In this document: one piece after another, positions 40,211-61,831 of the stretch
Position numbering within the stretch: position 1 is the stretch's first letter
How the letters are laid out: each line of letters begins with the position of its first letter
Origin: a virus
Lineage: Duplodnaviria; Caudoviricetes
DNA length: 64,000 nucleotides
Direction: 5' to 3' (one strand)
Virus record (IMG/VR): IMGVR_UViG_3300028833_000142
Location: 1 to 64,000 of that record
Made by a program: the position numbers and the translations under genes
The notes under the pieces: model-generated
What the model was told of the DNA's origin: nothing
The model's input: the letters and a program-made list of their open reading frames with translations, nothing else
Database searches by the model: none

Positions 40211-43200
40211 ATGCAGACATTAGAAAGAGAAAACGGTGTAAAAGAGGTAAATATGGAAGAAAATAATAAAAAAGAGTTTATAAAAAATTACTTAAATTCT
40301 CAATCTTATCAAAAAGATTTTGTCAATTTTATGGTAAATATGTTAGATAAATACGGGGTTGAAATATTTAATCTAAATGGTATTGGTGAACAATTAGATA
40401 TGAATAAAGCAATTAAGAAAGCTATGTCTAGTTCAACAATGGCAGATACTTCTGTAGACCCTAATTCTAATACCAATATTATTACAAGTGGTGCAGTATT
40501 TTCCGAAGTGGGGAAAGCACATTCTTTAATCCATAATCATTATAGAGTTTGGAAATTTATGAAAAAATCACATGATTTAGAATATGCGAATGATTTAATG
40601 GAAAGAAAGTTAACTGGTCAAATTTATATACATGATTTTAGTTCATTTTTACCGTATTCTTACTATGGAAAAACAGTTATAACTGTTAAATATCGTGGTC
40701 AAATTCTCTATTTGAATATGGAAGACTTGTTTAATATGTTTGAAAATAGTATTGAAGTTCTTCCTGATAGAGAAACAATTGATTTATCTAATGTTAATAT
40801 TTATGTTTTAGATAAAGGAAATAAGTTTGTTAAATTAACAAGAGTTTTACGCCATAAATCACATTGTGGGCTGTTAAAATTTGAAACAAAGAATGGAAGA
40901 ACAACAATAGTAACAGAAGACCACCCAGTAATTTTAGAAAATGGAGAAGAAAAACAGGCTTCTGCAATCAATATAGGCGATAGATTGATGATTTCAGATT
41001 GTTTGTTTGATATATTCGATAGTGGTTGTCATGATATTAGTAGAACAAAATATCTTGTTGGTTTTACTTTGGGTGATGGTCATTTGATATTGGGTGGAAC
41101 AAGAGGAAGTAATCAATTAAGCATAAAACAGAAAGGTTTAGAAAATCATAAAGTGTACCAATATATAAAGGAAGAAAGTCCAACAACGGCTAATAATTTA
41201 CACGATGGTGGTAACGGTACACAACGAGTTAGTTTTGGTACAAAGTGCTGGGTATGTAAAAATGCACAAATAAATCATGGAGCACCGAATAAAGTATTCC
41301 CTAAAGATGTACTAAATTGGGATAAAAATGAAGTTTTAAGTTTTATAGCAGGACTTATTGATTCAGATGGTTGTGTTAATTCACAGAACGGTGTTGTAGA
41401 TGTTCGTGTAACTGCCTTTTCAGCAGTTCAACAAATGGCTGAAATTTTGAGAAGTTTAGGTTTTGAACGTGTAAGAACTTCTTTAATGGATACACAAAAG
41501 AGAGAGTATCAATTCGGTTCCAATTATGACATGTATAGGGTTTCTTTCGTTGTAAATGACAAAAACATTGATTTAGTTAATTTTTCTGATAAATTGCAAA
41601 AATACAAGGATGTTGTGCTGAAAGAGCGTGGGAAAGACGGTAGGTTTGAAACAAACGAGGTTTTGAAAATCCGTTCATTTGAACAAGACTATGTTTATGA
41701 TATTACTACCGAGACAGGAACTTTCAGTTCACAAGGGTTAATACAACATAACTGTTTTAATTTTGACCCAGTACATTTTGCTTTATTAGGTATACCTAAA
41801 GAGCTAGATGGTAAAGGTGAAAGTTTACCACCACAACATATGGAATCTTTCTTTGGTATTTTGGAAGATATATTACCAATTTTCGCTAAAAATTTAGCTG
41901 GGGCTTGCGGAATAGCCACATTATTTCCAGTTTTATCTATATATGTACAAAAAGCAATAAAAGAAGGATATAAAATAGATAAAATACAATTAAAAGATGA
42001 ACAAGCTGTATGGGATTTTTTAAGAGTAAAATTGACATCTTTATTATATAATCTTAATAGACCATCCAGAGATGGTTCACAAAGTTTATTTACTAACGTA
42101 AGTATTATGTCACCGTCTTTCTTAGAAGAAGTTTGTGCTAATACTGTTGTGGTATTTAAAAATGATGTGGTTATTACAGCCGATGTAGATATTACTTTAA
42201 AAATACAAGATTTATGGGTTGATGTGTTTAACGAAGAAAGTAAGAGAAGACTATTTACCTTCCCAGTTCAAACATTGTCTATAGCAACAGTAGAAGACCC
42301 AGAAACAGGTAAACAAAAAATAGTAGATGAAGATTTTTATAACAAAATGATGGCTAAAAACTCTAAGTTGGCATCACAAAATGTATATGCTGGTGATAGT
42401 TCAACGCTAAGCTCCTGCTGCCGTTTGCGTTCAGATAAATCTAAAATTTTTACAAATTCATTAGGTGGTTCTACTTCAAATATAGGTTCGTTTGGTGTAT
42501 GTACAATAAATCTTGCTACTTTAGGTTTAAGATATAAAGACAACTTAGATAAATTTTACAAAGAACTTGAAAAAAATATTCGTTATGCACAAGAAGTTAA
42601 TAGATGTAAGATGAATTTCATTAAAAAAGATATAAAACGTGGTGCATTGCCTATGTATACATTGGGTTTTGTATCTTTAGATAAACAATATGCTACACTC
42701 GGAATTAACGGTTTATATGAATGTTGTGTGGAATTAGGCAAGGATTATAGAGAATTAAAAAATCGTAGCTTTGTAGAAGAATTACTACAATTTATTAATA
42801 AAATAAATGACGATATAGGCGAAAATACTTTAAAACATATTGTTAATTGTGAACAAGTGCCCGCCGAAAATGTTGCTGTAAAACTTGCAAAAATTGATAA
42901 TTTGCTTGGTTATAATACTAATTACGAAATTTATGCAAATCAATTTATTCCATTAGATATAACTACAGAAGGTGGTATATTGGACAGGGTATCAATACAA
43001 GGTGAGTTAGATAAATATTTTAGCGGTGGTAGTATTTTACACGCAAATTTAGACCAAGAATGTGATGAACAGTCATTTATAGACCTTGGCAAATATGCAA
43101 TTGAAAACGGTGTCAGATATTTTGGTATTAATTATGTTACTTGTAAATGTCATAATTGTGAAGGTACATTTGTTGGTAAATTCGATAAATGTCCTCATTG

Positions 43201-43324
43201 TGGCTCAGAAGATTTTGAGGCTTGGTGTCGTATTATAGGATATATGGTACCTATTTCTAATTATAATGCGGTTAGAAGAAAAAAATTTAACGATAGAATT
43301 TTTTATAAAAGTATCAATAATTAG
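40211..43324 (+). CDS. nrdD: Anaerobic (class III) ribonucleotide reductase, intein-containing, lacking an ATP cone
   Basis: IYIHD; SSCCRL finger loop; EQVPAE; YFSGGSILH; CHNC/CPHC Zn site; glycyl radical motif RIIGYM. Confidence 0.95.
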   Translation: MQTLERENGVKEVNMEENNKKEFIKNYLNSQSYQKDFVNFMVNMLDKYGVEIFNLNGIGEQLDMNKAIKKAMSSSTMADTSVDPNSNTNIITSGAVFSEVGKAHSLIHNHYRVWKFMKKSHDLEYANDLMERKLTGQIYIHDFSSFLPYSYYGKTVITVKYRGQILYLNMEDLFNMFENSIEVLPDRETIDLSNVNIYVLDKGNKFVKLTRVLRHKSHCGLLKFETKNGRTTIVTEDHPVILENGEEKQASAINIGDRLMISDCLFDIFDSGCHDISRTKYLVGFTLGDGHLILGGTRGSNQLSIKQKGLENHKVYQYIKEESPTTANNLHDGGNGTQRVSFGTKCWVCKNAQINHGAPNKVFPKDVLNWDKNEVLSFIAGLIDSDGCVNSQNGVVDVRVTAFSAVQQMAEILRSLGFERVRTSLMDTQKREYQFGSNYDMYRVSFVVNDKNIDLVNFSDKLQKYKDVVLKERGKDGRFETNEVLKIRSFEQDYVYDITTETGTFSSQGLIQHNCFNFDPVHFALLGIPKELDGKGESLPPQHMESFFGILEDILPIFAKNLAGACGIATLFPVLSIYVQKAIKEGYKIDKIQLKDEQAVWDFLRVKLTSLLYNLNRPSRDGSQSLFTNVSIMSPSFLEEVCANTVVVFKNDVVITADVDITLKIQDLWVDVFNEESKRRLFTFPVQTLSIATVEDPETGKQKIVDEDFYNKMMAKNSKLASQNVYAGDSSTLSSCCRLRSDKSKIFTNSLGGSTSNIGSFGVCTINLATLGLRYKDNLDKFYKELEKNIRYAQEVNRCKMNFIKKDIKRGALPMYTLGFVSLDKQYATLGINGLYECCVELGKDYRELKNRSFVEELLQFINKINDDIGENTLKHIVNCEQVPAENVAVKLAKIDNLLGYNTNYEIYANQFIPLDITTEGGILDRVSIQGELDKYFSGGSILHANLDQECDEQSFIDLGKYAIENGVRYFGINYVTCKCHNCEGTFVGKFDKCPHCGSEDFEAWCRIIGYMVPISNYNAVRRKKFNDRIFYKSINN
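40658..41752 (+). mobile_element. Intein with LAGLIDADG homing endonuclease (365 aa, Ser1...His-Asn, +1 Cys)
   Basis: PY|SYYGKTVITV; block B TEDHPVI; LVGFTLGDG and FIAGLIDSDG; VYDITTETGTF...QHN|CFNF. Confidence 0.92.
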
Positions 43325-49175: not shown

Positions 49176-49238
49176 TCTATTGACAAATAAAAATATATGT
49201 GATAAAATTTTCATGTAGTTAAGAAAAGGAGAATAAAA

Positions 49239-59488: not shown

Positions 59489-60129
59489 TAAGATTCCCTA
59501 TGATAGTTATATAGGTTGGACTCACGCAACTTGTAAAAAATGCAAAGAAGTATTCCCTATTTTTGACCGTTATGGTCAATGGAATGATTTACCGCCAGAC
59601 AATAAATTTTATTGCCCAAAATGTGAGCGAAAAGGTTTTAAATCAAAAAAACCAAAATCGCCCAAAACAGCTACTGGTCGTGTAACACCCGAAGTATTTT
59701 TGAAACAAAATGAAATAAAAGATAAATTAACTATCAAATTTTTTAAAAAGATTTGTCGTGAACGTGGCAAGGGTAGAAGTTATAATAGTATTTTAAAAGA
59801 AGCAATAGAAGTAGCAGATTTGTACAGAGAGGATTAAAATGACAGATTTTAAATATAAATTACCGATTTATGAAGTTGTAGATGAAGAAGGCAGTTTAAA
59901 ATTCTTATTTAATTTAGAGGCGAACAATATACCAAATATAGGTGAACAAATTGTTGTTTTAAAACGAGGTGAAGACGGTTCTTTTGAACATAGGCTTTAT
60001 TTTAAAATAATACACAAACTTATACCTACAGTTTTAGACGAAACAAATAATAGAATTTTTGATGAAGATAATGTGAATTATGTTTTATATGTTGAAAAAC
60101 AAATTGATGAACCTGTATTAAATTGTTAA
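59481..60129 (+). other. Zn-finger protein (59481-59837) and hypothetical protein (59839-60129)
   Basis: CKKC...CPKC in the first ORF. Confidence 0.55.
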
Positions 60130-60132
60130 CAC

Positions 60133-60198
60133 TTGACAAATAAAAAAATATGTGCTATAATAAAATTGTCAAGAAAATTGTACATTTAAAATTTAATA
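60133..60198 (+). promoter_or_regulatory. Consensus promoter plus boxA-like leader
   Basis: TTGACA-17-TATAAT with TG extension, then TTGTACATTTAAAATTTAATA. Confidence 0.8.
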
Positions 60199-60638
60199 AA
60201 AAATAAAAGAAGTGACTGAATAATACTTTCATCGGGTATAAAGTGGTGATATAAGAGAGTTGGAATACTCTTCATAGGTTTGTCAAAACCGAATTGTATT
60301 ACGCTCAGGTCTTTTAGAAAGCTCAAGTACGCATAAGATATATCTTGCAGGTTGAAAAATTACCAAAATGGGTATACGCTAGTAGGATTTTAATTTTAAA
60401 ATCTGTTCTCTGTATGCGGTACACAGCCAAAATCTAGCAATTAAACCATGCATGTAATCTGCTTACTGGTTAGAGTGGTGAGTGTTGAATAGTTTATCTA
60501 TTCTATGGGAAAAATTTTATGGAGAATGTTTTGCTGACGGGTAAAACTATTTTTTATAAAATCCGTAAAACTTGTGAAGGTCAAGGATAAAAGGTTTGAT
60601 ATTAGTAATAAACTAATCTAATTTTCTTTTATTTTTTA
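60198..60638 (+). ncRNA. Large structured ncRNA, probably a ROOL-family RNA
   Basis: ORF-free; closed by a 14-bp stem (60198-60211/60624-60637); many hairpins; segments such as TGAATAATACTTTCATC, GCTCAGGT..AAAGCT.AAGTACGCAT and AAACCATG.ATGTAA..TGCTTACT.GTTAGAGTGGTGAGTGTTGAA match my recollection of ROOL. Confidence 0.65.
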
Positions 60639-60672
60639 ATTTTTTTAACATAATATAATGTAACATTTTAAT

Positions 60673-60713
60673 TACCACCCTTTTAAACCTCTTTCTTGGG
60701 TGGTTTTTCTTTT
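60673..60713 (+). terminator. Terminator downstream of the large ncRNA
   Basis: ACCACCC...GGGTGGT followed by a T-run. Confidence 0.75.
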
Positions 60714-60870
60714 GTAAAAAATTACATGTCATTTACTGAATTTAAAAATGAGAAAATAAAAAAGCCAGAAAATATTTTTGAAAAATAAAAAACATTATAT
60801 AAAGAAGATATTAAAAAATATAATAAGATAAAAAACATAGTATCTTCCAAAATATAAAACATCAATTTAA

Positions 60871-60916
60871 TTTAAAGTTGTTAATTTCGCCCTTATATAC
60901 CAAGCGTTTCAAGACT
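60871..60916 (-). repeat. Dispersed ~45-bp element, copy 3 (inverted)
   Basis: Reverse complement is near-identical to 21578-21625 (TCTTGAAACGCTTGGTATATAAGGGCGAAATTAACAACTTTAAA). Confidence 0.85.
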
Positions 60917-61105
60917 CAAAATAAAAAGCAAGTGTAAAATCACGAGTAAACCACGTGGTGAATAAGATTTATCATAGCAAATAAAATTTAACATGTAGTC
61001 CACATGTCATGCCGTAGCTCAAGCTAAAAAAATGCGATTAAAACTCTTGACTTTTGGGAAATTTTTTGCTAAAATAATTGTGTTAGTAAAATAAAGAGGA
61101 AAAAA

Positions 61106-61831
61106 ATGATAGGTAGTAGTGATTTTTTTGATTTTGACATTTCAGAGCAGGATAATTTGAGCTTTTTCACATCAACCAATATTAAGACTGTTCTTGGCAA
61201 AAATCAAGTTTTGAACTTTATAGATAAAATGAATTTTGAATTAAAAATGTTTGATTTTTCAGAAACCGCATTGAATATTGCAAAATTTTATGAAGAAAGT
61301 AAAAATACAAAAGGGATTATATCTTTTTATCAAAATCAAGTGATACAAATGATTTTATATGTTATTGAAAATTATCCCGAATTAAAAAAATATTTATATG
61401 AAAGAATTTTTGATAGTATTGAACAAGATAAAATTAAGTGTTTAGACAACACTTTTAAAAACAATGAAGAAATTTATCAAAAAACACAAGAACAAGTAAA
61501 TAAGTTTGTTGAACAAAAAGCAATTTATGAAAAGAAAATTAAAAAAATAATGAAAGATAATAAATGCAATAGAAAAACCGCAGAGCTTATATATGAAAAC
61601 GAGAGATTGAAGAAATTAGCTCAAAAACAAGGCTTTGTATCACCGAGTTTTGGTGTAGAATTTCCAAATATACCTAATATATTCGGCACAGGCATACCAC
61701 AAGCACCTCAAAAAGATAGTGGTTCAAAAAACATAACTTCATCTGATGATACGGTAGAACAAGAAGAAATAATTATTGACGATACACAAAATAATAACGA
61801 CTCTTTTGATGATGAAAATTTTTGGTCTTAA
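61106..61831 (+). CDS. Hypothetical protein with an acidic C-terminus
   Basis: Promoter at 61048; RBS GAGG. Confidence 0.65.
   Translation: MIGSSDFFDFDISEQDNLSFFTSTNIKTVLGKNQVLNFIDKMNFELKMFDFSETALNIAKFYEESKNTKGIISFYQNQVIQMILYVIENYPELKKYLYERIFDSIEQDKIKCLDNTFKNNEEIYQKTQEQVNKFVEQKAIYEKKIKKIMKDNKCNRKTAELIYENERLKKLAQKQGFVSPSFGVEFPNIPNIFGTGIPQAPQKDSGSKNITSSDDTVEQEEIIIDDTQNNNDSFDDENFWS

Follow-up and report, generated by a model that had tools for sequence, protein, structure and literature searches.

A large structured RNA gene of gut and rumen phages with probable kinship to manA

The RNA gene and its homologues

The window is the whole stretch of DNA analyzed here, 64 kb (positions 1–64,000) out of the 75.9-kb IMG/VR phage contig IMGVR_UViG_3300028833_000142 (CheckV completeness ~47%; G+C ~29%). 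The phage encodes a DnaE-type polymerase, DnaB, DnaG, and an intein-bearing NrdD. A 975-nucleotide (nt) gap without genes separates a 96-amino acid (aa) gene that ends at 60129 from a 241-aa gene that begins at 61106. A sequence-only reading had proposed that this gap holds a large non-coding RNA in a stand-alone transcription unit. The promoter, a structured core of ~438 nt (60199–60636), and the terminator of such a unit were all found, and the unit fills the first 580 nt of the gap (60133–60712). Comparison with related loci confirms 60133–60712 as a real structured non-coding RNA gene of gut and rumen phages. A coding reading was rejected; no open reading frame in the gap (60129–61106) exceeds 46 aa, and none is conserved among lineages. 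The parts of the unit described below lie on the plus strand.

Sixteen homologues were fetched from metagenomic phage contigs, giving a family of 17 sequences with the window. The downstream 241-aa protein was found in a large protein collection at 44–90% identity, and a profile search added ~40 more distant clusters. Contigs were obtained for twelve of the 241-aa homologues, and they represent 12 distinct syntenic contexts. The RNA is present in 12/12. Each context has the order PNKP-type phosphatase gene, at least two small genes, a gene-free gap of 0.76–1.16 kb, and the 241-aa homologue. The RNA retains 52–69% identity where the flanking protein drops to 43–50%. Some record names suggest ruminant gut metagenomes (e.g. 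PRJEB21624, which we take to be a cattle-rumen study).

The remaining type of homologue, L019, was found in GTDB genomes by a structure-aware pattern that rests on the P3 domain, with the conserved loops fixed and the stems free. It lies on an 83-kb contig binned with a Candidatus Saccharibacteria metagenome-assembled genome (MAG). The contig is a phage, with a single-strand gene layout and genes for a PolA-type polymerase, a DNA transfer protein, a tail protein, a helicase, and a ligase. It has only two proteins in common with the window phage, so the RNA occurs in two unrelated phage groups. The presence of the family in both DnaE-type and PolA-type phages suggests a mobile, self-contained module.

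The promoter (60133–60161) consists of a −35 TTGACA, a 17-nt spacer, and an extended −10 TG-n-TATAAT. It matches the sigma-70 consensus at 12/12 positions, in agreement with the perfect promoter of the sequence-only reading. The TTGACA and TGCTATAAT boxes are retained across all rumen-type lineages, and L019 has a weaker promoter, TTGATT plus an extended −10. The start site is placed ~7 nt past the −10 and would give a 5' leader at 60168–60198. Where the sequence-only reading had suggested a boxA-like leader, a motif, UGAAC(A/U)UU(G/U)AAAAU, is conserved in the alignments directly 5' of the closing stem; it is UGUACAUUUAAAAU in the window and UGAACUUUGAAAAU in other lineages and is able to extend that stem. 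The terminator that had been predicted is an intrinsic one at 60676–60712, a G+C-rich stem of 7 base pairs (bp), ACCACCC/GGGUGGU, with a 17-nt loop followed by a U-run. An automated terminator scan missed it solely through its loop limit of 8. A stem-loop and U-run stand at this place in every lineage, each with its own sequence, including GCCACC/GGUGGC in L011, AACCCAG/CUGGGUU in L029, GCAGACU/AGUCUGC in L158, and CCCUUAG/CUAAGGG in L019. The terminators are lineage-specific and the promoter is kept (weaker in L019); therefore, the unit appears to be transcribed on its own. It is part of an early block where small genes follow repeated strong promoters.

The covariation alignment comprised 15 sequences with 43–99% identity. 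RNAalifold gave 108 pairs, 79 of them with compensatory changes. Lengthening the closing helix and adding a pseudoknot spotted by eye produced the final structure of 122 pairs, in which 92.7% of the cells are paired compared to 74.7% in shuffled alignments. Compensatory double changes occur in 85 of the 122 pairs, compared to 50.2 after shuffling and 24–36 when the partners were slid by 1–3 columns. The covariation score is 0.525, versus 0.20 for the shuffled and 0.09–0.15 for the slid controls. All 21 helix segments counted have at least one pair changed on both sides. The structure has 17 nested helices and one pseudoknot, where at least eight hairpins had been expected, and the covariation that would mark a non-coding RNA exceeds both controls. 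Core folding energy on the plus strand has a z-score of −3.7, and the invariant G-U pairs (alignment columns 64–81, 257–317, and 252–323) fit the plus strand alone as RNA. A minus-strand RNA was rejected; it has a weaker fold (−75.5 versus −103.4 kcal/mol), and the invariant G-U pairs would turn into A-C.

The core is closed by helix P1, which pairs 60199–60212 with 60623–60636 and is identified by an inverted repeat and by covariation. The 14-bp stem joining the RNA ends was borne out as a perfect match; 60198–60211 is the exact reverse complement of 60625–60638, and the repeat can be extended to 28-nt arms that are 79% complementary. P1 covaries as AGAAAAUGAAG/CUUCAUUUUCU in L026, AAAGGCAAG/CUUGCCUUU in L029, UUUAAUAGUA/UACUAUUAA in L019, and AGAGAAUAGUG/CACUAUUCUCU in L158. 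Inside P1 lies a 5' module (60212–60244) that resembles manA and consists of GUGAC-UGAAUAA, hairpin P2a (60223–60227/60235–60239), and UAAAGU. P2 (60215–60217/60242–60244) and P2a both covary. The P3 three-way domain (60246–60302) has a 9-bp stem (60246–60254/60294–60302) around P3a and P3b, with double changes in 8/9 pairs. The P3a loop UUGGAAUA is invariant, and the P3b loop is GUCA.

A large inserted domain of ~260 nt (60321–60581) follows. It is closed by the long-range helix P4, which pairs 60321–60328 with 60570–60581 and changes from U-A to C-G in L026 and L027 and from A-U to G-C in L024. The domain contains P5–P8, P9, P10, a long P11 arm, and the pseudoknot. The pseudoknot pairs GCUAG (60378–60382) with CUAGC (60434–60438) and crosses P5; it is 96% paired, and its versions include GGCGG/CCGCC, GUUGG/CCAAC, GCUCG/CGAGC, GGUAG/CUACC, and GGUGG/CCACC. 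The long-range GACGG/CCGU pairing suggested earlier did not hold. CCGU (60563–60566) pairs instead with AUGG inside 60504–60509, in a helix where 5/6 pairs covary, and UGACG (60535–60539) caps the long P11b arm as a conserved hairpin loop. UGACG is complementary to UGUCA of loop L3b (60281–60285), and the two may form a loop-loop pairing, one without covariation. The terminal hairpin P12 (60601–60622; AUUAG/CUAAU) has a 12-nt loop, UAAUAAACUAAU, and adjoins the P1 3' strand; it forms a manA-like 3' module.

Several observations concern the surroundings of the unit. The terminator loop (60683–60699, 17 nt) holds AACCUCUUUCUU, which is kept in the L011/L022 lineage despite a different stem and resembles the anti-Shine-Dalgarno end of 16S rRNA. 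In the inverted-repeat analysis, complementarity between the loop and the downstream gene's ribosome-binding region (61090–61106) is 76%. An octamer, TTACATGT (60718–60725 in the window), follows the RNA terminator, or the tRNA if one is present, in every lineage. The second half of the gap (60713–61046; ~330 nt, 24% G+C) is conserved in close relatives and partly in distant ones. The equivalent space in L024, L026, and L027 is where their tRNA genes lie. In the window, TTGAAA at 60778 resembles a weaker promoter, and GAAGAUA...UAUCUUC at ~60815–60862 forms a hairpin, so a second small transcript is possible there.

The L019 phage region looks complete and also encodes a QueC-like protein, a CobA/BtuR adenosyltransferase, and an R2K ATP-grasp protein. 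At 30%, the G+C content of the L019 contig is near the 32% of a host-like contig in the same bin. Saccharibacteria as the host was not supported; the L019 copy is on a phage contig co-binned with the MAG, and a search of 150 other genomes of the Saccharibacteria class found 0 copies of the RNA. Both of the unrelated RNA-bearing phages have an intein inside a ribonucleotide reductase gene, a LAGLIDADG intein in NrdD of the window (40211–43324) and an intein in a class I/II-type reductase in L019 (6321–7892). In L008, the final ~75 nt of the core are duplicated in tandem (1902–2051), which doubles the terminal hairpin and the P1 3' strand; this may be a genuine variant or an artefact of assembly.

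Other searches were negative. A blastn search of GenBank phages with three divergent family members gave no match. IMG/VR relatives were not found via either flanking protein, protein alignment, or two RNA patterns, and a search of IMG/VR via DnaE gave a single 57% match on a short contig. Two matches in a pattern scan of JGI metagenomes lie inside a coding region and were judged to be chance. No second copy of the RNA was found in the window or its relatives, and what matched in part at 49180 and 37965 only resembles the promoter and leader.

Probable kinship to manA

The window and its relatives were compared with the RNA families of Rfam 15. At the gathering threshold, the whole window has no match to ROOL, GOLLD, OLE, HEARO, raiA, or any other family. 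A permissive scan with all families (E ≤ 10) over the 1.2 kb at 59900–61100 and permissive scans (E ≤ 1 or E ≤ 10) of the homologous loci in eight relatives gave no ROOL, GOLLD, OLE, HEARO, or raiA match. The ROOL model RF03087 (574 positions, cut-off 99.1 bits) found nothing in the entire contig at E ≤ 10, a result of little weight alone because control genomes gave no match either. The identification of the RNA as ROOL thus failed the covariance-model check, both in the window region and in the eight relatives. Its stated alternative, a new large RNA, fits a large, ornate, stand-alone RNA that nothing in Rfam 15 reaches at threshold.

The sole recurring Rfam match is manA (RF01745). It recurs in two lineages and covers two separate parts of the RNA, with 14.8 bits on the 5' domain of the window, 14.6 bits in L008, and 19.7 bits at the 3' end of L031 (E = 0.0065, 521 nt searched). 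In 2010, Weinberg et al. proposed manA as a riboswitch candidate in 5' untranslated regions (UTRs) of cyanophages and marine bacteria (PMC2864571). A pattern taken from the 5' portion of the Rfam consensus collected at least 120 manA loci in IMG/VR, and a manA consensus was derived from 101 distinct sequences among the matches listed.

Two separate modules are common to the RNAs. cmscan aligns 60212–60244 to manA positions ~18–60. Here both consensus sequences run in the same order, from the final G of the closing-helix strand through UGAC-UGAAUAA and a hairpin to UAA(A/G)GU, and this 5' module is found in 17/17 family members with small variations. The next element in each is the 5' strand of a multi-hairpin stem, UAAgGUGAUGAgAc in manA and UAAAGUGGUGAUAU here. 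At the other end of both RNAs, the closing helix's 3' strand is immediately preceded by a hairpin with a G-C closing pair and a 12-nt loop, UAAUA-N4-AAU. The terminal loop is UAAUACAGGAAU in manA, compared to UAAUAAACUAAU in the window, and the L019 loop UAUACCAGAAU is almost identical to the manA variant UAUACAGGAAU. In the L158/L159 lineage, the terminal loop has diverged.

Models built from the family were run on the manA loci. Model R1, built from the family 5' domain, aligns P2, P2a, and P3 onto manA, and 12/17 matches fall there, in a test that is not independent because the manA loci had been selected by a 5' motif. Model R2 was built from the terminal hairpin alone, using 7 family members, and was searched over 525 kb. 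The manA 3' hairpins are 49 of its 51 top matches, each 139–150 nt downstream of the 5' pattern, and the best match has 29.4 bits (E = 4.5e-4). In the AT-rich 64-kb window, R2 matches nothing but the true site. Selection of the manA loci had relied solely on the 5' pattern, which makes this test independent. These data suggest that the family is probably a diverged and enlarged relative of manA, standing outside RF01745 as defined.

Two further observations relate to manA. The IMG/VR cyanophage contig L111 has two R2 matches, 869–896 and 381–407, that lie ~490 nt apart and may represent a tandem pair of manA RNAs. An internal "second manA unit" was considered from the repeat UAAAGUGGUGA/UAGAGUGGUGA and the L031 alignment, and it was dropped because the repeat is confined to the window clade.

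A palindromic hexamer and the neighbourhood of the RNA

The sequence AACC and the hexamer AUGCAU (60448–60453) lie together at 60444–60453 and form a candidate site for a symmetric intermolecular kissing contact. AACC is invariant in the 16 rumen/gut sequences and is GGCC in L019. The hexamer that follows is a perfect palindrome in 16/17 sequences, and its versions are AUGCAU, ACAUGU, AUAUAU, and AAGCUU. Over 449 nt, L009 departs from all six close relatives at just two aligned positions, the central hexamer bases, where GC is replaced by AU. In OLE and GOLLD, symmetric kissing loops were deduced from palindrome covariation at adjacent bases and were confirmed by cryo-electron microscopy (PMC12286853). 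The same study describes ROOL and GOLLD as cage-forming phage RNAs that are often near tRNA genes. manA is reported to form RNA-only decamers, octamers, and a 60-subunit icosahedral cage via kissing loops (July 2026 preprint, bioRxiv 10.64898/2026.07.01.735769). The idea of cage-type self-assembly in the present family thus has some indirect support from the manA kinship and the covarying palindrome.

Three points weigh against self-association through this hexamer. The palindrome rests on three independent changes, p ~ 0.01 by a rough estimate. The hexamer has a competing intramolecular partner in the P5 3' strand, where at least 5/6 positions pair in 14/17 sequences; this pairing fails in the AAGCUU lineage. 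L019, as aligned, is without the palindrome. Taken together, the hexamer data are suggestive of self-association, to which we give slightly less than an even chance.

tRNA genes were found beside the RNA in some relatives. A tRNA-Cys, or a tRNA-Met and a tRNA-Cys, is directly 3' of the RNA in L024, L026, and L027, and a tRNA-Trp is 1 kb from it in L019. A search of the downstream spacer of the window for a tRNA or tRNA remnant found none, which counts against a link to tRNA. The tRNA genes and phage contigs give the RNA a ROOL-like setting, one not specific to ROOL. A PNKP-type phosphatase gene lies three genes upstream of the RNA in all rumen lineages, and it was the only neighbouring protein assigned to a family in a check of the neighbours. 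In L019, an HD + AAA_33 kinase-like gene is near the RNA. A role in tRNA function or translation has also been suggested for GOLLD and ROOL. For the present RNA, the neighbouring genes hint loosely at such a role, which is speculative and which we consider rather unlikely.

The phosphatase and kinase-like genes also speak for the most probable of the alternatives, that the RNA is a monomer acting as a ribonucleoprotein component or as a decoy for a host or phage protein, for example for an RNA-repair or anticodon-nuclease-related factor, and that the palindrome is a site for a protein or one acting at the DNA level. The phosphatase gene of the rumen lineages and the kinase-like gene of L019 would fit such a factor, and OLE provides a precedent for a large RNA that works with proteins (PMC12286853). 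However, the neighbours differ between the two phage groups, and no partner was identified. The AUAUAU and AAGCUU versions of the hexamer are free of CATG, which counts against a DNA-level site of that type. The palindrome changes its sequence yet keeps its symmetry, which suits RNA-RNA pairing over a fixed protein site. We regard a monomeric RNA of this kind as a minority possibility.

Alternative readings and comparison with known RNAs

Several results weigh against the kinship to manA. The scores of 14.6–19.7 bits do not reach the RF01745 cut-off of 55.2 bits, and the manA model has no match on L011 and L028. A sequence-only nhmmer profile of manA has its top matches to the family on the 5' module, and they are not significant (E = 1.6–3.3). 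Part of the L031-manA alignment conflicts with the family's own structure. The interior helices are without likeness to those of manA. The manA interior, a P3 with three hairpins (loops GUGGUG, variable, and uACCA) and a P4 hairpin, is not shared; P3 of the family has two hairpins, or three in some lineages, with other loops. The shared modules could be a reused structural motif and not a sign of common descent. In that case, the RNA would be a new large phage class with only recurrent junction and loop motifs in common with manA, and the wholly different interiors would go along with the differences in host environment and size. Such an origin is unlikely. The two separate modules stand in the same order and in the same register to the closing helix, the start of P3 matches too, and the independent R2 test is strong.

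Less probable still is a cis-regulatory leader or riboswitch for the 241-aa gene, as first proposed for manA. manA was classed as a 5' UTR riboswitch candidate (PMC2864571), and the RNA precedes the 241-aa gene in all rumen lineages. This synteny exists by construction because the rumen-type homologues were all fetched through one flanking protein, and L019 has other neighbour genes. An intrinsic terminator stands behind the RNA in every lineage. The 241-aa gene has its own promoter (61047–61075), and ~390 nt or tRNA genes lie between the RNA and the gene. We consider a riboswitch very improbable. A compact ROOL member, which the large, ornate, phage-encoded RNA of the ruminant gut with adjoining tRNA genes in some relatives would resemble (features typical of ROOL per PMC12286853), is scarcely credible given that the permissive region scan, the whole contig, and the eight relatives gave no model match and that manA is the sole recurring family.

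The best explanation overall is a stand-alone RNA gene for an enlarged manA relative that acts as an RNA-only homo-oligomer, a combined account that we think fairly likely. The interpretation of the sequence-only reading survives as a large, ornate, stand-alone, new non-coding RNA, and its ROOL label does not, there being no model match. The host RNA polymerase would initiate at the extended sigma-70 promoter of the early-gene block and terminate at the intrinsic terminator, giving a predicted transcript of ~545 nt. In the fold shown by covariation, P1 closes the 438-nt core, with the 5' module, P3, the ~260-nt pseudoknotted domain, and the terminal hairpin abutting P1. By the models run in both directions, the P1 frame, 5' module, P3 start, and terminal hairpin would be those of the ~190-nt cyanophage manA, whose short P4 would have been replaced by the large new domain. 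The RNA may then act as an RNA-only homo-oligomer like manA, ROOL, and GOLLD, a step we put forward tentatively. The single-stranded hexamer, self-complementary through three independent changes, would make a symmetric kissing contact between two copies, and the conserved loops UGACG, GUCA, and UUGGAAUA could add further contacts. The leading guess for the role of the assembly in infection, a tie to tRNA or translation, is a speculative one to which we attach a low probability.

The broadest form of this proposal makes the RNA the first of a new large-RNA class in phages, in which a manA core and a ~260-nt domain form protein-free symmetric homo-oligomers or cages via a palindromic kissing site. 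We consider it possible, although doubtful. If true, the small manA cages would be tied to the phage nanocage RNAs of the ROOL/GOLLD type, and manA-type RNAs would be stand-alone early assembly RNAs, possibly acting on tRNAs or the translation apparatus, and not riboswitches. To our knowledge, large ornate RNAs of bacteria and phages are few (OLE, GOLLD, ROOL, raiA, and HEARO), and no function is understood for any of them. The present work adds a well-supported RNA family that lies beyond the threshold reach of any Rfam 15 model and has clear gene boundaries, a candidate dimerisation site, and an unexpected kinship to manA. With this probable kinship, manA-type RNAs extend from marine cyanophages to AT-rich gut phages, and a small cage-forming core appears able to carry a large extra domain. 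The family argues against the riboswitch reading of manA. The two sizes, 190 nt and 440 nt, also form a natural series in which the encoding of RNA quaternary structure can be studied.

Known systems resemble the RNA to different extents. ROOL is an RNA-only cage with kissing loops that is often found beside tRNA genes (PMC12286853). The RNA is like ROOL in kind and setting, being large, ornate, phage-borne, rumen-associated, and tRNA-adjacent in some relatives, but it is ~440 nt compared to ~580 nt, has another helix plan, and has no detected match in sequence or structure. GOLLD and OLE are likewise large ornate RNAs, and their symmetric kissing loops covary between the palindromes GGCC, GAUC, and AGCU (PMC12286853). 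They differ in giving no model match, in their sizes (>800 nt and ~600 nt, respectively), and in their architectures, and OLE is bacterial and works with proteins. manA has a core of ~190 nt, whereas the core here is 438 nt, and its ~40-nt P4 hairpin stands where the family has the ~260-nt pseudoknot-bearing domain. An upstream P0 hairpin is present in manA and absent here. The G+C content is 31% here versus ~45–50% in manA. The RNA has its own promoter and terminator, in contrast to the position of manA in the 5' UTRs of metabolic genes, and it occurs in ruminant and gut phages instead of marine cyanophages and gamma-proteobacteria. Its manA scores are about one third of the family cut-off. 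Both RNAs are phage-encoded, and the closing-helix frame, 5' module, P3 start, and terminal hairpin are common to them.

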